Shown: positions 14,237 to 30,823, counted from the stretch's first letter. The stretch: DNA of 40,000 nt from Candidatus Altimarinota bacterium (GCA_028281045.1 JANQKP010000009.1:10508-50507); one strand, 5' to 3'. Notes: generated by a model not told the origin, from the letters alone. Program-made: numbers and translations.

Positions 14237-16522
14237 ATGAAACAAAACCAAGAAAACATCCTAGGAGAAAACGAAAGATTTGTTTACCAGAATGCCGTAA
14301 GCGCAGATCAGCAGTCTCAAACGGCTGAAGCTGCCCCTGCAGGCATCCCTGAAAATCTTAAGGAAACAGCTCCAGCTGAAGCAGCTCCTACTAAGGAACC
14401 TGTAGTAATGGATAAAGCTACTGAACCTAAGAAACTAGGATTTTTCACTAAACTAAAATACACCCTGTTCCCTACTCTAGATACGAATAAGAAACCAGCT
14501 AAAGCCCCTATTACTAAAGAGGACGTAGCGGCGCTAAATACAGAAGGAAAACCAGCGGAAACCGCTGAGAAACCAGTAGATAAAAAAACAGAAGCGCAAC
14601 AAATCCGCGAAGCGGAAAAGATCTATAAACAAGGTCTTGTAACCATTAAAGATCTTATGGCTCCATCTTCTATGGAGTTCATGTACGACAAATACCGTGT
14701 AAGCGGTGTGCATGCAAAAAGCTTCTTTGTTTATGCTTATCCACGCTTCTTGGAAGCGAACTGGCTAAGCCCTATCATTAACTTCGATGTATCAATGGAC
14801 ATCTCTATGTTCATTTATCCATCAAGTAGCGCTTCTATTATGAAGTTCCTTAAGAATAAGGTGGCGCAACTTCAATCTTCTATGCGTATTGAAGCTGAAA
14901 AAGGTATGGTGGCAGACCCTGCCCTAGAAACCGCACTTCAAGATGCAGAAGAACTTCGTCGTAGCATTCAGCGTGGAGAAGAAAAATTCTTCCAATACGG
15001 ACTATACTTCACTGTTTATGCAGATGACGAAGATAAACTGAAAAAAATCCAAACCAGACTAGAAAGTGCCCTTGGAGGGAAGCTAATTCTTACGAAATCA
15101 GCAGACCTTCAACAAGAACATGGGTTCAATTCTACGATTCCTCTAGCAACAGATGAGCTGGAGATCACTCGTAATATGAATACCGCTCCACTTTCTACCA
15201 CTTTCCCTTTCAGCTCAAGTGATCTTACCTCTAATAAAGGGATTCTATATGGTATTAATCGTCATAATGACGGTCTTATCATTTTCGATCGCTTCGATCT
15301 AGAAAATGCTAACTCTGTGGTATTTGCGAAATCTGGTGCTGGTAAGTCATATGCTGTAAAACTAGAGATTCTTCGCTCTATGATGATGGGAACAGACGTT
15401 ATTGTTATAGACCCTGAAAATGAATATGAAGAACTCGCTAATACGGTAGGAGGAACCTATTTACGTGTATCGCTGAACAGTGATCAACGTATCAATCCTT
15501 TCGATCTTCCTCTGGCGCTTAAAGATGAAGAAACTAAGCCAGGAGATCTATTAAGATCTAATATCATTACCCTTCATGGACTTCTGAATCTGATGCTTGG
15601 GAAACTAACCCCAGAAGAAGAAGGTCTTATGGATAAGGCCCTTATAGACACTTATGCGCTTAAGGGAATCACTATGGATACCGTAAATCCAGGTGAGCTT
15701 ACGCCTCCAACCATGCAGGATCTATACGATATTCTTTCGAACACAAAAGGAGCAGAAAACCTAGCTCAAAGATTACAAAAGTATACAGTTGGAACCTTCT
15801 CTGGAATCTTTAATCAGCCTACAAATGTAGACCTAGGTTCTGGACTGGTTGTGTTCTGTATTCGTGACCTAGAAGATGCACTTCGCCCTATTGCGATGTA
15901 CATCATTCTTAATTACATCTGGAACCGCGTTAGATCTAGCCTTAAACGTCGTCTTCTTATGATCGATGAGGCTTGGACCATGATGCAACACGAAGACAGT
16001 GCAAGATTCCTATACGGACTTGTAAAACGTGCTCGTAAATACTACCTAGGGATTACAACGATTACCCAGGATGTGGAAGACTTTGTGAAATCTGAATACG
16101 GTAAGCCAATTATCACAAATAGCTCTATGCAATTACTGCTTAAGCAGTCTCCAAGTGCTGTAGAGCCACTGACTAAAATATTCAACCTTACAGAAGGTGA
16201 AAAATACCTACTACTTAACTCAAGTGTAGGGCAAGGACTGTTCTTTGCAGGACTTAAACACGTGGCGATTCAAATCATTGCTTCATACAATGAAGACAAA
16301 GTAATTACCACAAACCCACAAGCGGTTCTTGAACAACGTGCAACCGAAGAGCAAAGCTTCGAGCAGCCACAAGAACAAGCTGCAGCACCTGTAGCAGAAG
16401 CTGCTCCTGCAGCGGAAGCTCCAGTAGAGGAAGTAGCTCCAGAAGCTACCCCTGTAGAAACTCCTGCAGAGCCAGAAGAACCTCAGGCTCCAGCGGAAGG
16501 AGATCTACCAGCCGCCGCTTAA
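14237..16522 (+). CDS. VirB4/TrbE/TraE-family type IV secretion ATPase homologue with disordered N- and C-terminal extensions
   Basis: Walker A FAKSGAGKSYAVK (about 15334-15348) and Walker B LLMIDEAW (about 15953-15976). The N-domain pattern YPRFLEANWLSPIINFDVSMDISMFIYP is typical of Gram-positive-type VirB4 proteins. About 130 aa of Pro/Ala/Glu/Lys-rich N-terminus and a 60-aa PAxE-rich C-terminus. Confidence 0.85.
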   Translation: MKQNQENILGENERFVYQNAVSADQQSQTAEAAPAGIPENLKETAPAEAAPTKEPVVMDKATEPKKLGFFTKLKYTLFPTLDTNKKPAKAPITKEDVAALNTEGKPAETAEKPVDKKTEAQQIREAEKIYKQGLVTIKDLMAPSSMEFMYDKYRVSGVHAKSFFVYAYPRFLEANWLSPIINFDVSMDISMFIYPSSSASIMKFLKNKVAQLQSSMRIEAEKGMVADPALETALQDAEELRRSIQRGEEKFFQYGLYFTVYADDEDKLKKIQTRLESALGGKLILTKSADLQQEHGFNSTIPLATDELEITRNMNTAPLSTTFPFSSSDLTSNKGILYGINRHNDGLIIFDRFDLENANSVVFAKSGAGKSYAVKLEILRSMMMGTDVIVIDPENEYEELANTVGGTYLRVSLNSDQRINPFDLPLALKDEETKPGDLLRSNIITLHGLLNLMLGKLTPEEEGLMDKALIDTYALKGITMDTVNPGELTPPTMQDLYDILSNTKGAENLAQRLQKYTVGTFSGIFNQPTNVDLGSGLVVFCIRDLEDALRPIAMYIILNYIWNRVRSSLKRRLLMIDEAWTMMQHEDSARFLYGLVKRARKYYLGITTITQDVEDFVKSEYGKPIITNSSMQLLLKQSPSAVEPLTKIFNLTEGEKYLLLNSSVGQGLFFAGLKHVAIQIIASYNEDKVITTNPQAVLEQRATEEQSFEQPQEQAAAPVAEAAPAAEAPVEEVAPEATPVETPAEPEEPQAPAEGDLPAAA

Positions 16523-25136: not shown

Positions 25137-26819
25137 TTATTTCACTGGGTAAGATCCTAGTATTTTTAGCTTCGCCACCTTCTTTTTAATGGCTTTAAGC
25201 ACGGCTTGAACTTTTTTATCTGTAACAGGCAATACAAAGTCTAAATAAATCACATATTCGCCTGGGCGATATGGATTTGGGCGAGACTCAATTTTAGTTA
25301 AATTGATGTCTCTATCTGAAAGCTCTTGAAGAATAGAGATCAGCTGACCTGGTTTATCTTCTCCGAAGTGCAGAGCAATAGAAGTCTTCTTAGCATCTTT
25401 CTCAAACTTAGGTTTTCCTTTTTTAATCACTGCAAAATGCGTAGTGTTTTTTTTGTCATCTTCAATTCCAGCTTGAAGCACTTTAAATCCGCGCTTTTTA
25501 GCCGCTTGCACTGAGGCTACTGCCGCTGCCCCAAGGTGCTTCGTACGCATTAGTTTATCAAGCGCTGCGGCCGTACTATTAGTCGTTACCTTAATTGCCT
25601 TAGAAAGATTCTTTTTTAAGTAATTTCTCACCTGCATAAGTGGCTGAGCATGAGAGTAAACTCTTTTAATGTCTTTCATGCCTAAATCTTCTTTAGCCAC
25701 CAAGGCTAAAGAAATAGATTGGGGCATAACACGCTCAATATAAACGTTCTTTTCATAAAGCTCATCTAAAGTTTCACGCACAGAACCACTGGTAGTGTTT
25801 TCTAGGGGTACCAGCCCCTCTTTAATCTTACCTTTAGCCACAAGCTCAAACACCTCAGCAATGGTAGAAGCATAGTAAACTGTGCCTTCTGGCTTATAGT
25901 TTTTAACCGCCATGTCTGAGTAAGTGTTTTTAGGTCCAAGTACGGCAATATTACACTTCTTCAAGTTCTGTACCTCTTCATCTTCACGTGTGTTTCTCGC
26001 GTGAATGAAGTCTATAAGCCCCGTGCTTTCTTGAAGTGCCACTTTTTTGAATCGACCAAAGTAACTGCTGGCGTCTTTAAAGAATTTTTCAAATCTTTGT
26101 AGACTTTTTTCTTCAACGGTTCCAGCTAAATCTTTAGCACTGTCTATAAAATCGTGTAGCACCTTCTTCGCTCTCGGATTACTCATCTGAATGTTCGCAT
26201 AAAGCGCAGGATCTTGAGCTAAAATGCGTCCTGCCATTAAGATTTCAAAGCGATAAATAGGGCTTTGTACGGCCAGGAAGTCGTCTAGTGAGATTTTAGA
26301 TTTTCTAAGAGCATCTGCCAGAGAAACATTGGCAAAATGAGCCAGTACTTGCACATAAGCCATGAGCTCATCGTGCTTTTTAGCAGACATTTCTCTCACA
26401 TGAACCTTGTTGTCTTTCAAAAGTTTTCTCATCCACTTCTTATAACCCCCTGCTCTTGCCGAACAAAGCACTAAAGTTTGTCCTTCAATAGGATTAGTGG
26501 GTCCAAAAATAGGATGAAGCCCAATCACATGGGCCTTACTCTTTTTCATAGCATCCATAGCAGGCCCTTTAATGGAAGTAAGGTCCATTAAGCACTGCTT
26601 ACGAGTCATCAAAGGAGCAATTTCTTGAATCACTTTCTCCGTCACGTTGATCGGAACAGAAACTAAAACCACATCTGCCTTTTTGGCGATGTCTTTATTC
26701 TTTAGCTTTGTACCTCTGTCAGAAACAATGACTTTGTAACCATTGCGCTCAAAGAAATCGGCGAAATATTTCCCCATATTACCTTTTCCCCCAATGATTC
26801 CAATAACTTTTGGTTGCAT
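25137..26819 (-). CDS. bifunctional prephenate dehydrogenase / prephenate dehydratase fusion with a C-terminal ACT domain
   Basis: The N-terminal half has VIGIIGGKGNMGKYF and GLHPIFGP (TyrA-like). The C-terminal half has IAVLGPKNTYSD, PLENTTSGSV, VYSHAQPL, NTTHF and INLTKIESRP (PheA plus ACT). There is no room for a chorismate mutase domain between the halves. Confidence 0.85.
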   Translation of the reverse strand: MQPKVIGIIGGKGNMGKYFADFFERNGYKVIVSDRGTKLKNKDIAKKADVVLVSVPINVTEKVIQEIAPLMTRKQCLMDLTSIKGPAMDAMKKSKAHVIGLHPIFGPTNPIEGQTLVLCSARAGGYKKWMRKLLKDNKVHVREMSAKKHDELMAYVQVLAHFANVSLADALRKSKISLDDFLAVQSPIYRFEILMAGRILAQDPALYANIQMSNPRAKKVLHDFIDSAKDLAGTVEEKSLQRFEKFFKDASSYFGRFKKVALQESTGLIDFIHARNTREDEEVQNLKKCNIAVLGPKNTYSDMAVKNYKPEGTVYYASTIAEVFELVAKGKIKEGLVPLENTTSGSVRETLDELYEKNVYIERVMPQSISLALVAKEDLGMKDIKRVYSHAQPLMQVRNYLKKNLSKAIKVTTNSTAAALDKLMRTKHLGAAAVASVQAAKKRGFKVLQAGIEDDKKNTTHFAVIKKGKPKFEKDAKKTSIALHFGEDKPGQLISILQELSDRDINLTKIESRPNPYRPGEYVIYLDFVLPVTDKKVQAVLKAIKKKVAKLKILGSYPVK

Positions 26820-26839
26820 AGTAAAATAAAGTATAACAC

Positions 26840-26860
26840 AAAGCCTAAGGCGCAGGCTTT
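26840..26860 (-). terminator. possible terminator hairpin after the VirD4-like gene
   Basis: A 7-bp stem aaagcct/aggcttt with a 7-nt loop, immediately downstream of the stop at 26863. The T-run on the minus strand is weak. Confidence 0.35.
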
Positions 26861-26862
26861 AT

Positions 26863-29634
26863 TTATTTTTTATTTTGTTTACCTTTAGAAGTCTTTTTCT
26901 TTGGCTTCTTTTCCTCGGTTTTCTTTTCTTTTTTAGGCTCTTCCTTTTTCTCCTCTTTCTTCTCTTCTTTTTTAGGAGCTGCTTTAGCTTTTTCTTCTAT
27001 CTGCTTTTTACCTTCATTTAAAGCTTTGCCACTTTCACTCCAACGTTTGATCTTATCCTCCACTTCTTCGCGTGGCGTGCAGTATCTTTCACGTGAAATA
27101 CGTACGATTTTATCTCTGCGATCTTCATCGTGCTCCAGCTCTGGTGGTGGCATAGTAGAAAGCGAGAAAGTAGGGGTTGGCATACCATCTACCATAAGCT
27201 TCATGTAAGCGTTGTATTTAGGAATGGTTACAATGTCGTTAGGCAGTGCATCTTCAGCAAACTGCGCTGAGAACACCTCAGCGTCTTCGTAACCCACTTG
27301 GAACGTAAGTAAACTACCCACATTACCAAATACGGCGTCACGTACCTCATCTGGCATCTGTGCGATGTACTGATTCGCCATAACCAGGTTAAGTTTATAC
27401 TTACGTGCTTCAGAAAGAATCACGGCAAAGGCATCTGTCGCAAAGTTTTGGAACTCATCGACGTAAAGATAGAAATCTTTACGATCTTTTTCGGCAGTAT
27501 CGGCGCGGCTCATCGCATCAAGTTGGAACTTGGTAATAAGCATTGAACCAAGGAGTGCAGAGTTATCATCTCCGATGAGACCTTTAGAAAGATTTACAAC
27601 CACAATCTTACCGGTGTCCATCATAAACCTGAGATTCACGGTAGATTTCACTTGCCCTAGAATATTTCTAATCACAGGACTAGAAAGGAATTGTCCTACC
27701 TTATTCTGAATAGGCGCAATAGCCTCTGTTCTTTGGCGAGGATCGAATTTAGCAAATTCATCGAGCCAGAAGCTGCGTACCATAGGATTACTTACCTTAG
27801 AAACCACCTTACGGCGATAATCTTGGTCCACAAGAACACGCATCACTCCAAGCATAGAAGTATTTGGATACTCTGCAAGAGATAGGAGTGTATTTCTAAG
27901 AATATGTTCTAGACGTGGCCCCCAAGAGTCTGCGTACATCTTTTTAAATACCCCAAGGAGTCCAGAGGCAATGAGATTTCTCTTCTCTGGCGTATCCCCT
28001 GTTTCAAGCATGTTAAAGGCAAACGGATGAGACGTGTCTGAAGGATCTAGAATCACTACATCGTTCGTTCTATTACTTGGAATAAAGTCTATTACAGCAT
28101 CGGCAAGATCTCCATGCGGATCAATCACGGCAAGTCCTTTGCCGCGTTGCACATCAGAGAAGATCATATTTTCAAGCAGTACGGATTTACCCATACCGGT
28201 TTTACCGATGATATACATATGTCTACGACGATCCACCTGTTTGATTCCAAACTTCTGACTATGTCCACGGAAATTAGATTTCCCAATAATGGTGAGTTCA
28301 TCGTTATCGGCTCCGCCGGCCACAGGCAGGTTATGCGGTGGCTCAAGCTTACGTGAGTGAAGCCAATGTACATTAGGCGTTCCTACATCTTTATTTGGCA
28401 TATGATACAGCGTAGCGATCTCTTCTACGTTCAGCATCATTGGAGTACCAACCGTACGTGTTTGATAGCGCTTGAATAACGCTGAATTATTTTGATTGAT
28501 CTTAGAGATTTCAAACCCATTTAGATTCGGCATATTGAACTGGCGGAAAGAACCTGCGATTTCATTCAGTTTTACTTCCGCTAGGTCAATATTTTCTCGG
28601 CGCATCACATAAACCAGGCGAATAGCAGTATCGAAAGTAAGACGAGTTACCTTATCTACCCCTGCTGAAATAGGATCTTCACGATCATGATTACGTGATA
28701 CTTGCTCATCTAAATCATCTGCAGTAGCGCTAGAGCTTTTCATTGGCAGTTCTGTGCGACTAATCCCCCTTTGAATCCAGAAAAATAGGAAAACAGGAGA
28801 AAGTAAGAAGCGTTTCCAGAACCCACGCACTAAATAAGTATTAGTGGCGAACTTCTTCAGCCAGAAAACACTTTCGTAAAGTCCACTGCTTACGAGCTTT
28901 AAGCATTTAAGCCCACGAATTCTCCACCAGTCCCCTGTTGGTTGAACCACAATTTGCACCCAGGCTTGTTCATCGGTTGCATTCAGCTTAGAAAGCGTAG
29001 CGGTGATCCCAGCCAGTGGCTCTGTAGCGAGTCTTGTCAGCTTATCTTCAAACTGTGGGTATCTTTTAATCGGATAAATTGCTGGATCAATGAGCTTAAG
29101 CTCTGCAGTAGCCATATAATGGGTCTTTGCATGCTTGCTGTGCTCTTTCATTGGCACAGGCATCGCCTCTTCTCCAGGTTTTACTTCCACCGGCATTGGC
29201 GCAGGCATTTCTTTCTCTACCTTACTCGTCACATGCTCTACGGCGCTAAAGCTTTGCTGAGCATAATCGGGCACTTCTTCAATTTCTACATCTGGGTACT
29301 GCGCGTAAATCTGAGATTCAATCACATTCTTAAAACGCTTAGGCGTCCAAATAAAGAATTGGATCAGATTATTCACCGAAGCAATCTCTAAACTAATGCG
29401 AGGTCTTAATTTTCCTGCAAGATAATCCCAGAAAGAATAATTTTCTTCTATACCATGAATAGCGGCATAGATTTGCTCTGCCACAATAGGACCACGTTCA
29501 TTCAGTTTCGAAACGGCCACTCTAAGTACGGTGCTTTCTTCCGCATTCTTGTTAACGCTTCGCCTTATACTAATAAGTATGCGGTACGCCACAAGGAGCG
29601 CGATCAGCGCTGCTAGCGGTAATAGTATTGTCAT
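26863..29634 (-). CDS. VirD4/TraD/TraG-like coupling-protein-family P-loop ATPase with a large N-terminal domain of unknown function and a Lys/Glu-rich tail
   Basis: Walker A IIGKTGMGKSVL (28183-28206) followed by VIDPHGDLA, and Walker B FYLYVDEFQNF (about 27450-27475). N-terminal TM helix (MTILLPLAALIALLVAY) plus a second hydrophobic segment near residue 290. About 470 aa precede the ATPase with no recognised family. The C-terminus is KKEEKKEEKKEEPKKEKKTEEKKPKKK. The ATG at 29634 is preferred over the GTG at 29670. Confidence 0.75.
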   Translation of the reverse strand: MTILLPLAALIALLVAYRILISIRRSVNKNAEESTVLRVAVSKLNERGPIVAEQIYAAIHGIEENYSFWDYLAGKLRPRISLEIASVNNLIQFFIWTPKRFKNVIESQIYAQYPDVEIEEVPDYAQQSFSAVEHVTSKVEKEMPAPMPVEVKPGEEAMPVPMKEHSKHAKTHYMATAELKLIDPAIYPIKRYPQFEDKLTRLATEPLAGITATLSKLNATDEQAWVQIVVQPTGDWWRIRGLKCLKLVSSGLYESVFWLKKFATNTYLVRGFWKRFLLSPVFLFFWIQRGISRTELPMKSSSATADDLDEQVSRNHDREDPISAGVDKVTRLTFDTAIRLVYVMRRENIDLAEVKLNEIAGSFRQFNMPNLNGFEISKINQNNSALFKRYQTRTVGTPMMLNVEEIATLYHMPNKDVGTPNVHWLHSRKLEPPHNLPVAGGADNDELTIIGKSNFRGHSQKFGIKQVDRRRHMYIIGKTGMGKSVLLENMIFSDVQRGKGLAVIDPHGDLADAVIDFIPSNRTNDVVILDPSDTSHPFAFNMLETGDTPEKRNLIASGLLGVFKKMYADSWGPRLEHILRNTLLSLAEYPNTSMLGVMRVLVDQDYRRKVVSKVSNPMVRSFWLDEFAKFDPRQRTEAIAPIQNKVGQFLSSPVIRNILGQVKSTVNLRFMMDTGKIVVVNLSKGLIGDDNSALLGSMLITKFQLDAMSRADTAEKDRKDFYLYVDEFQNFATDAFAVILSEARKYKLNLVMANQYIAQMPDEVRDAVFGNVGSLLTFQVGYEDAEVFSAQFAEDALPNDIVTIPKYNAYMKLMVDGMPTPTFSLSTMPPPELEHDEDRRDKIVRISRERYCTPREEVEDKIKRWSESGKALNEGKKQIEEKAKAAPKKEEKKEEKKEEPKKEKKTEEKKPKKKTSKGKQNKK

Positions 29635-29729
29635 ATTATTTACATCACGTGGATGCGGGCACCAGACCACAATGAATCATTGAGAATGGACCACGTATTT
29701 ATTATACCTTATTTTAGGGGAAAACGCCA

Positions 29730-29746: not shown

Positions 29747-30823
29747 ATGAAAAATATTGCCATAGTACATGACATGCTCCTAAAACTAGGTGGAGCAGAG
29801 CGGGTGGTTAAAGCATTATCGGAGATTTATAACGATGCTCCGATCTATACGCTTTTATATGATCAAAAAAAGACCGATGAATGGTTTGGTGGCACGGTTA
29901 TTCATCCCAGCAAACTTCAAAAGAAGTTTAATCTCGTTAAAAAACCCAAGTATTTTCTGCCTAAAATGGCAGACGCTGTAGAAAGCTGGAACTTTAATCA
30001 CTACGATACTGTGATTTCAAGTTCTAGCGCCTTTGCTCATGGAATTAAAACCGGTAAAAACACGAAACACATTAGTTATGTACACAGTCCTATGCGCTAC
30101 GCTTGGGATTATACCCATGAATACACCAAAGGTATGAGTCCTTTCATGCAAAAAACGGTAGCGAAGATGCTAAACCCTATTAGACAATGGGATTTTCTTA
30201 CAAGCAGCAATCCAGATGTAGTTGTAGCGAACTCAGAGCACGTTAAAAAGCGAATTCAAAAGTATTGGCGCAGAGACGCCCAGGTGATTTATCCCCCAGT
30301 AAATGTAAAACGCTTTACGCCTAAAAAAGAACATGAGGATTATTTCCTCATTGTTTCTGCACTCACCCCCTTTAAAAGAATAGATTTAGCGATTCAGACA
30401 TTTAATAAGATTAGAAAGAACTTGGTTATCATCGGAGATGGGGCTCAGATGGGAGAGCTTAAAAAAATGGCCAACGAAAAGTACATTACTTTCATGGGGA
30501 GGCAAGATGATGCAAACACGACAGAGTTTTATGAAAACTGTCGCGCTTTTATCTTCCCAGGAGAAGAAGACTTTGGAATTACCCCTGTAGAAGCTATGGC
30601 TTCAGGTAAGCCTGTGCTGGCCTATGGAAAAGGAGGCGTCCTTGAAACAGTTCAGGCAGGAATCACAGGGGAATTCTTTAAGGAACCTGCGGCAAAATCA
30701 TTAGAAAACGGTCTGGCTAATCTTTTAGCCAATGAAAAACACTATGATTTTAATCAAATTAGAAAAAGAGCCGAGGAATTTGATGAATCTATCTTTAAAA
30801 AAGAAATTCAGAAGTTAATTTAG
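29747..30823 (+). CDS. glycosyltransferase, family 4
   Basis: C-terminal EEDFGITPVEAMASGKPVLAY (E-x7-E) motif and a GT-B layout. Confidence 0.82.
   Translation: MKNIAIVHDMLLKLGGAERVVKALSEIYNDAPIYTLLYDQKKTDEWFGGTVIHPSKLQKKFNLVKKPKYFLPKMADAVESWNFNHYDTVISSSSAFAHGIKTGKNTKHISYVHSPMRYAWDYTHEYTKGMSPFMQKTVAKMLNPIRQWDFLTSSNPDVVVANSEHVKKRIQKYWRRDAQVIYPPVNVKRFTPKKEHEDYFLIVSALTPFKRIDLAIQTFNKIRKNLVIIGDGAQMGELKKMANEKYITFMGRQDDANTTEFYENCRAFIFPGEEDFGITPVEAMASGKPVLAYGKGGVLETVQAGITGEFFKEPAAKSLENGLANLLANEKHYDFNQIRKRAEEFDESIFKKEIQKLI

Follow-up and report, generated by a model that had tools for sequence, protein, structure and literature searches.

We analysed a 40,000-nucleotide (nt) stretch of DNA from Candidatus Altimarinota bacterium (hereafter the window; positions are counted within it, and contigs of the same genome are labelled C1, C2 and so on, the window gene lying on C4). 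The source assembly comprises 1.21 Mb in 9 contigs, is 96% complete and belongs to the Peregrinibacteria (Patescibacteria/candidate phyla radiation, CPR). We found that the minus-strand gene at 26863..29634 encodes a 923-residue protein, in which a domain of the Pfam family DUF8128 is followed by an ATPase of the coupling-protein type, and that this gene is a further member of a published, near-universal and functionally unsolved family. On balance, its product is probably one of four paralogous, chromosomally fixed VirD4-family ATPases, acting as a membrane ring motor that serves the lineage's type IV secretion system (T4SS). The gene and the elements of its product are as follows.

26863..29634, minus strand: coding sequence, DUF8128 plus coupling-protein-type ATPase, 923 residues (stop codon 26863-26865)
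29563..29628, minus strand: N-terminal transmembrane helix, residues ~3-24, predicted N-out/C-in (hydropathy 2.5; modelled as helix 4-31)
28315..29541, minus strand: DUF8128 (Pfam PF26449), residues ~32-440, with ferredoxin-like beta-alpha-beta units and a predicted fold like the VirB4 N-terminal domain; presumably cytoplasmic
29119..29214, minus strand: Pro/Met-rich insert, residues 141-172, predicted disordered (predicted local distance difference test, pLDDT, <50 at 142-169)
28762..28821, minus strand: second hydrophobic segment FLLSPVFLFFWIQ, residues ~272-291, with the conserved aromatic/Pro motif FFPxYxxFW
28324..28425, minus strand: junction motif EEIATLYHMP...KLEPPHNLP, residues 404-437 (conservation)
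27145..28302, minus strand: ATPase of the coupling-protein type, residues ~445-830, a RecA-like nucleotide-binding domain into which an all-alpha domain is inserted (Pfam, TrwB sequence and structure matches)
28183..28206, minus strand: Walker A GKTGMGKS, residues 477-484 (sequence and conservation)
27442..27474, minus strand: Walker B FYLYVDEFQNF, residues 721-731, with YVDEFQNF at 724-731 (sequence and conservation)
26866..26991, minus strand: Lys/Glu (K/E)-rich C-terminal tail, residues 882-923, predicted disordered (pLDDT 34-51)

A conserved gene with a coupling-protein-type ATPase

Translation of the frame is free of stops from its ATG over all 923 residues. An alternative GTG start at 29670, 12 codons upstream of the ATG, would give 935 residues; alignments of homologues begin at residue 1 of the ATG form. 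Because a single search returned more than 2,100 homologues, the best of them at 70-72% identity, 26863..29634 is a genuine conserved gene rather than a chance open reading frame. The homologues at 64-72% identity span 94-100% of the protein and come from metagenome assemblies of Peregrinibacteria and Patescibacteria. An earlier note on this DNA, made from the sequence alone, had described the same frame with its Walker A, VIDPHGD and Walker B motifs, one transmembrane helix, a second hydrophobic segment, a Pro/Met-rich linker and a K/E tail, all of which are present.

The C-terminal half, taken in that note to be of the VirD4/TraD type, indeed scored above the Pfam cut-offs with TrwB_AAD_bind (34.2 bits versus 20.5) and DUF87 (30.7 bits versus 23.2), and weakly matched TraG-D_C. 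Among the entries of the PDB, TrwB was matched by sequence at E 4.6e-5 with the Walker A region aligned, and a Foldseek comparison of the modelled ATPase half with TrwB gave TM-scores of 0.63-0.67 (normalised to TrwB) and a root-mean-square deviation of about 5.5 Å over about 450 columns; HerA, DotL and Cag-beta were matched as well. Helices 549-660 of the model would form the all-alpha insert, the alignment of about 450 columns being against the 417-residue TrwBdeltaN70 chain as a whole. Of the VirB4 families, AAA_10 reached only E 0.016, below its cut-off, and P-loop_TraG gave no match in the Pfam scan. The catalytic motifs are intact: across 64 homologues, G477, G480, G482 and K483 of Walker A and D726, E727 and Q729 of Walker B are invariant, and VIDPHGD lies at residues 503-509. 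As a side observation, the mad8 model of the MADS defence system aligns with residues 459-811 over nearly the whole of its 314 positions; MADS may have recruited a coupling-type ATPase.

Identity and predicted fold of the N-terminal half

The N-terminal half, to which no family had been assigned from the sequence, is the catalogued but uncharacterised DUF8128 (PF26449). This assignment is precomputed on every homologue in a large protein collection, gene tables name DUF8128, and it is carried by homologues at 25-72% identity, those at 53-72% having it together with TrwB_AAD_bind, DUF87 and TraG-D_C. A profile made from PF26449 homologues scored the window protein at 432 bits. The N-terminal 468 residues gave no match in the Pfam and NCBIfam sets scanned, the Pfam set lacking the PF26449 model, and no mention of DUF8128 was found in the literature searched.

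Structure prediction, which had been proposed for residues 1-470, yielded a confident AlphaFold2 model of the N-terminal half from a 66-row alignment (pLDDT 84.3; predicted TM-score, pTM, 0.81), with a long first helix followed by beta-alpha-beta units in ferredoxin-like order. Its 13 Foldseek matches in the PDB at E <0.01 were all to TrwK/VirB4 of the R388 T4SS (E 6e-6 to 7e-3, probability 0.96-1.0), with TM-scores of only 0.30-0.36. The best of these extended over 469 columns at E 6e-6, and the next match stood at E 0.24. The full-length model (pLDDT 84.8, pTM 0.76) likewise had TrwK/VirB4 as its top Foldseek match, collinear over about 914 columns at E 2.8e-12. From this collinearity, DUF8128 would be the counterpart of the VirB4 N-terminal domain, which in TrwK comprises residues 15-400, mediates dimerisation and is wrapped by VirB3 (PMC9259494).

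A link between DUF8128 and VirB4 at the sequence level was rejected: hhalign against 30 patescibacterial VirB4 sequences gave a probability of 0.3, and the DUF8128 profile (66 sequences) found no match among PDB sequences. The likeness is thus one of predicted structure. Nor did any of the 66 DUF8128 members match the Pfam families of the VirB4 N-terminal domain. DUF8128 was also considered as the 'TrsD' reported near virB4 and rejected, no profile match being found in the flanks of 30 virB4 loci, which were short (about 1.5 kb).

Membrane topology, junction and tail

Among the homologues having the N-terminal helix, Lys and Arg together average 0.1 ahead of the helix, against 4.05 within the 15 residues that follow. 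This predicts an N-out orientation with DUF8128 in the cytoplasm, where a VirB4-like domain would be expected. With only about 13 hydrophobic residues, the second hydrophobic segment falls short of a standard membrane span; P280 within it is nearly invariant (64 homologues), and its FFPxYxxFW motif is kept also in homologues lacking the transmembrane helix. We infer that it is an interfacial or re-entrant element rather than a second span. A topology of two transmembrane helices with an extracytoplasmic DUF8128 was considered unlikely, given the positive charges after the first helix, the shortness of the second stretch and its occurrence in homologues without the first helix, and the retention of DUF8128 without either hydrophobic element in the C5 paralog and in a Bacillus protein, both described below.

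The junction motif precedes the ATPase in fused proteins. Its E405, H411, P413 and P433 are invariant and P437 is nearly so, and it is kept in the Bacillus plasmid protein. The Pro/Met-rich insert is missing from the three paralogs in their alignment. As for the KKEEKK tail, which had been suggested to bind nucleic acid, it is predicted to be disordered and its length differs among close homologues, so that such a role is without support; GyrA and L31 of the same window bear similar K/E tails, a genome-wide habit.

Fused, split and paralogous forms

Searching with the N-terminal half alone returned 1,856 cluster representatives, many of them stand-alone proteins of 400-530 residues that end just past EELAxxYHFP...KKxEPPxxLP. 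On long Paceibacteria-like contigs, the stand-alone DUF8128 gene lies 2-7 nt upstream of a gene for a 624-648-residue ATPase with TrwB_AAD_bind, TraG-D_C and a zinc finger, flanked by housekeeping genes. The occurrence of the family both fused and split but adjacent is a classical sign that the DUF8128 and ATPase halves function as one unit. Two of the split modules (L007 6905-7963 and L008 4353-5468) are preceded by a gene with Sigma70_r4 and HARE-HTH, and the T4CP-like (type IV coupling protein-like) SEML1_0293 of S. epibionticum likewise follows a sigma-factor gene, SEML1_0294; no neighbour of this type occurs at any of the four paralogs of the source genome.

The DUF8128 profile matched in 299 of the 301 genomes of the phylum that were sampled, five complete genomes having 2-4 copies each, and VirB4 homologues were found in 99 of the 101 genomes at least 95% complete. 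Phylogenetic profiling against VirB4, proposed earlier as a check, therefore cannot discriminate, both families being near-universal.

The source genome has exactly four paralogs, all of the fused form. The three besides the window gene are:

C1:193997-196522, plus strand: paralog, 841 residues
C2:229263-231875, minus strand: paralog, 870 residues
C5:144285-146522, minus strand: paralog, 745 residues, without the N-terminal transmembrane helix and the internal hydrophobic motif

Since both hydrophobic elements are missing, the C5 paralog is probably soluble. In the tree, the window gene clusters with orthologs from Peregrinibacteria, Peribacteria and Gracilibacteria (support 100/100), the C1 and C2 copies fall in a class-spanning clade and the C5 copy groups with Saccharimonadia sequences, over an unresolved backbone. 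The neighbours of these three paralogs gave no Pfam matches. A multi-transmembrane protein of 613-640 residues without a family match (C2:227348-229270, plus strand) has a 3' end that overlaps the 3' end of the C2 paralog by a few bases, and could be a membrane partner of that paralog.

Homologues on plasmids and phages

The ATPase half was found in 536 plasmid records by tblastn, the identity in this half being only about 29-35% for the Bacillus and Embleya plasmid proteins. One B. subtilis plasmid carries a split form, a 412-residue ATPase gene preceded by a 272-residue gene to which the DUF8128 profile aligns at E 5e-22, with a relaxase of the replication-relaxation family three genes downstream and a VirB4-sized ATP-binding protein further on. 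In most related Bacillus plasmids both parts are in one gene; thus NZ_OX419581 encodes a 913-residue 'DUF87' protein immediately upstream of a relaxase gene and of transfer genes of the TcpD/TcpE type. The patescibacterial full-length profile aligned with this protein at E 3e-83, from the DUF8128 half through the C-terminal helices, and the DUF8128 profile matched it at E 2e-21 and an Embleya protein at E 6e-11. The Embleya plasmid NZ_CP108778 encodes an 812-residue fused homologue within the order PrgI, XF1762, VirB4-sized ATP-binding protein, T4CP, relaxase and NlpC/P60.

The homology of these plasmid coupling proteins to the window protein is end to end and takes in the DUF8128 half as well as the ELA..hP / PP junction motif. 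Their genes adjoin relaxase, VirB4 and Tcp- or PrgI-type transfer genes, whereas the window gene does not, and the Bacillus plasmid protein is without the N-terminal transmembrane helix. Moreover, gp156 of Bacillus phage G (JN638751/NC_023719, 90955-93126) covers residues 53-833, including most of DUF8128, and phrog_5156, the phage family concerned, which has no assigned function, matches at 2.4e-73. Homologues are also encoded by the Bacillus phages PBC5, SP-10, CP-51 and Shanette.

Judging from these homologies to plasmid proteins of Bacillus and Embleya and to a phage G protein, the two-domain architecture belongs to the coupling protein used by one class of mobile elements in monoderms and is not a patescibacterial invention. 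This origin fits the nesting of the patescibacterial T4SS within the MPF-FATA class of monoderm conjugation systems, as given in the published survey (PMC12102498). It had been anticipated that the N-terminal half might prove to be an ordinary TraG/TraD N-terminal domain, and this nearly holds: DUF8128 does accompany relaxase-linked coupling ATPases, although it is not the classical two-helix membrane domain of TraD/TraG. The Bacillus plasmids were also examined as possible relatives of pLS20, which was rejected, the T4CP of pLS20 (gene 48, 786 residues, two transmembrane helices) being a different, canonical protein (PMC8557374).

At 40% identity and E 2e-91, the plasmid homologue closest to the ATPase half is encoded on an alphaproteobacterial plasmid of Sulfitobacter mediterraneus (NZ_CP081110, locus L059, 99994-101181). 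It is a 395-residue protein with the ATPase only, lies among transposase and recombinase genes, and may reflect transfer between very distant lineages.

Gene setting and other T4SS parts of the genome

The features next to the gene, together with the VirB4 gene of the window, are:

26838..26862, minus strand: terminator-like hairpin directly 3' of the stop codon (consensus scan only)
29701..29706, minus strand: TATAAT, -10-like hexamer about 65 nt 5' of the ATG (read from the sequence)
25137-26819: TyrA-PheA fusion, downstream neighbour
29747-30823: glycosyltransferase of family GT4, divergent upstream neighbour
14237..16522, plus strand: VirB4 homologue, not adjacent (P-loop_TraG 1.8e-25, AAA_10 3.6e-10)

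With a hairpin after the stop codon and TATAAT before the start, the gene looks monocistronic; a full -35/-10 site upstream of it was not listed by the promoter scan. The setting agrees with the earlier description, in that the aromatic amino acid and glycosyltransferase genes are confirmed as the TyrA-PheA fusion and GT4, the VirB4 homologue is 10.3 kb away (about 10 kb had been given), and the flanking genes are housekeeping ones with no mobile element. The G+C content is even across the window, at 0.39-0.44.

The same description had spoken of a minimal set of two ATPases. This proved too narrow: besides the four paralogs, the genome holds single PrgI/VirB3-like and TrbL/VirB6-like matches and about 20 T4SS_pilin (VirB2-like) matches in several arrays, dispersed over several contigs.

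C2:26130-26402: PrgI/VirB3-like match, the only one
C5:168324-168650: TrbL/VirB6-like match, in a frame of 716 residues with a pilin array directly after it
C5:168324-171365; C2:168806-171097; C9:33185-35187; C7:29073-29682: sites of T4SS_pilin and other T4SS parts

No match to the relaxase families PF13814, PF03432 and PF01076 was found in the genome, other relaxase families not having been searched. Most patescibacterial VirB4 frames (loci L014-L042) are about 600-650 residues long, and their alignment with the 761-residue VirB4 of the window starts no earlier than about residue 110; the window copy thus has an N-terminal extension that is missing in most sampled relatives.

These features agree with what Quinonero-Coronel et al. 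2025 (PMC12102498) describe across the phylum, namely scattered T4SS components and missing relaxases, with VirB4 in 2,417 of 3,035 Patescibacteria genomes and 5,713 T4CP homologues spread over 2,918 genomes, just 148 of the homologues lying close to virB4. The VirD4-like T4CP homologues of that survey, chromosomal, in about two copies per genome, almost never by virB4 and without a relaxase, are the same family as the window gene. Nothing essential is different here: the source genome has four copies, this one with the Pro/Met-rich insert and K/E tail. No description of the N-terminal domain of these homologues was found in the available part of that source.

Proposed function and alternatives

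The domain composition, conservation, distribution and homologies described above make a VirD4-family ring motor of the lineage's T4SS somewhat probable; the ring itself, its topology, partners and substrate are inferred as follows. A single N-terminal transmembrane helix, predicted N-out, would anchor the protein, followed by the putatively cytoplasmic DUF8128 of about 400 residues, the TrwB-like domain, in which an all-alpha domain is inserted and Walker A and B are both intact, and the presumably disordered K/E tail. Taking TrwB, VirB4 and HerA as analogues, one would expect a ring on the membrane's inner face, in which DUF8128 may take the part of the VirB4 N-terminal domain, that is, oligomerisation and docking to membrane partners of the VirB3/VirB6 type. 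ATP hydrolysis would then drive a macromolecular substrate into or out of a relaxase-less chromosomal T4SS. Its ancestor would have been a coupling protein encoded by a conjugative element of monoderms, since plasmids of Bacillus and Embleya have this two-domain protein beside relaxases. S. epibionticum has two T4CP-like proteins that may be of this family and might include a counterpart of the window paralog: SEML1_0142 (1,019 residues) was scored as essential at all time points and SEML1_0293 (921 residues) as non-essential (Wang et al. 2023, PMC10633639, Table S1).

Several observations weigh against the T4SS motor. No conserved neighbour ties the window ortholog to T4SS genes, its contexts differing among genomes and all being housekeeping. 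The whole-chain TM-scores against VirB4 are low (0.25-0.36), and the hhalign comparison with VirB4 was null. In the absence of a relaxase of the three Pfam families searched, a classical coupling role in DNA export is unlikely. Finally, Bacillus phages, although devoid of a T4SS, encode homologues with this architecture, so that the motor may not need a T4SS channel.

In the main rival, a possible though rather doubtful one, the DUF8128-ATPase ring would be a T4SS-independent nucleic-acid translocase that, alone or with other membrane partners, imports or handles DNA or RNA and so provides nucleotides for bacteria unable to make them. The phage homologues, the missing relaxase and the rarity of T4CP homologues near virB4 all fit such a translocase, as do two genomes (G058 and G117) that have DUF8128 but no VirB4 match, and acquisition of host RNA by a cultivated patescibacterium is reported in a 2026 preprint (10.64898/2026.06.21.733656). 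Functionally, the nearest analogues of this architecture are CedB and CedD of the Sulfolobales, which combine a transmembrane segment, a domain like the VirB4 N-terminal domain and an ATPase, and are needed for DNA import (PMC11868833). Like the window protein, they are chromosomal, without a relaxase, and have an ATPase of the FtsK/HerA superfamily; they differ in being archaeal and in the HerA clade of their ATPase. Membership in CedD itself was rejected, the weak match to the NCBIfam model NF053655 reaching 28.9 bits against a cut-off of 600 and covering only the P-loop region (model positions 201-278). Against a T4SS-independent translocase, moreover, the plasmid homologues lie inside conjugation gene clusters, and the near-universality of both VirB4 and DUF8128 means that their distribution cannot show independence.

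An assembly ATPase of the VirB4 type, that is, a ring partner that lends structure or energy to the short patescibacterial VirB4 and contributes the VirB4-like N-terminal domain, instead of a substrate receptor, is an unlikely reading. It would account for the collinearity of the full-length model with TrwK/VirB4, the restriction of significant N-domain matches to VirB4 and the shortness of most patescibacterial VirB4 proteins, and a comparable hetero-assembly has been proposed for CedB and CedD. The ATPase half, however, belongs to the coupling families, its AAA_10 and P-loop_TraG results standing against 1.8e-25 for the VirB4 of the same genome with P-loop_TraG; DUF8128 showed no profile-level similarity to patescibacterial VirB4; and the plasmid homologues coexist with a separate VirB4 and adjoin the relaxase, as coupling proteins do. 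Thus TrwK/VirB4 of R388 (7O41-7O43, 8RTB, 8RTD) shares the modelled two-domain layout, but neither sequence-profile likeness nor the family of the ATPase half, and the whole-chain TM-scores suggest that the domain orientation differs, possibly with details of the fold. TrwB of R388 (1E9R, 1GKI), the archetypal VirD4-family coupling protein, conversely shares the ATPase fold including the all-alpha domain, but has a short two-helix membrane domain and no VirB4-like N-domain of 400 residues, and works with a relaxosome. In place of the two-helix membrane domain of the VirD4 family, the window protein has one transmembrane helix and the globular DUF8128, and in place of linkage to relaxase and T4SS genes, its gene has housekeeping neighbours.

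That the protein is a HerA-type anti-phage defence ATPase unrelated to type IV secretion, an alternative raised in the earlier note, is very improbable: its matches to PADLOC mad8 (MADS, 5.8e-16), to HerA models (2.6e-8 and weaker) and to HerA structures do not extend beyond the common ATPase fold, the gene has no defence partner such as a nuclease, Sir2 or methylase next to it, and a family found in 2-5 copies, with conserved paralog clades, in about 99% of the sampled genomes is unlike patchy defence islands. Least probable of all is a remnant of a recently integrated conjugative element, for although the family is homologous to plasmid coupling proteins, the G+C content is uniform, the gene is flanked by housekeeping genes, neither an integrase nor a relaxase of the three families searched being found, and the orthologs form a 100/100 clade from genomes of the same class only.

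Implications for the family and its hosts

The family can now be pictured more sharply. Its DUF8128 front, resembling the VirB4 N-terminal domain in predicted structure, is common to practically every sampled genome, and recurs in those coupling proteins of Bacillus and Streptomycetaceae plasmids that are linked to relaxases, as well as in a protein of a Bacillus jumbo phage. Two questions are thereby made testable, whether coupling proteins evolved from VirB4 and what the patescibacterial motors translocate, and the Bacillus plasmids offer a tractable place for the study of DUF8128.

Much of bacterial diversity consists of Patescibacteria, whose cells live on those of other organisms, and in the only strain examined by genetics the type IV secretion genes are reportedly essential. 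It is conceivable, if improbable, that the DUF8128-ATPase is a surviving intermediate between VirB4 and VirD4, a motor of the coupling type that has retained the VirB4-like N-terminal domain, and that its multiplied, chromosomally fixed patescibacterial copies pull host nucleic acids or other macromolecules through a relaxase-less T4SS. If so, such copies would be core to the way in which these biosynthetically minimal bacteria feed on their hosts.

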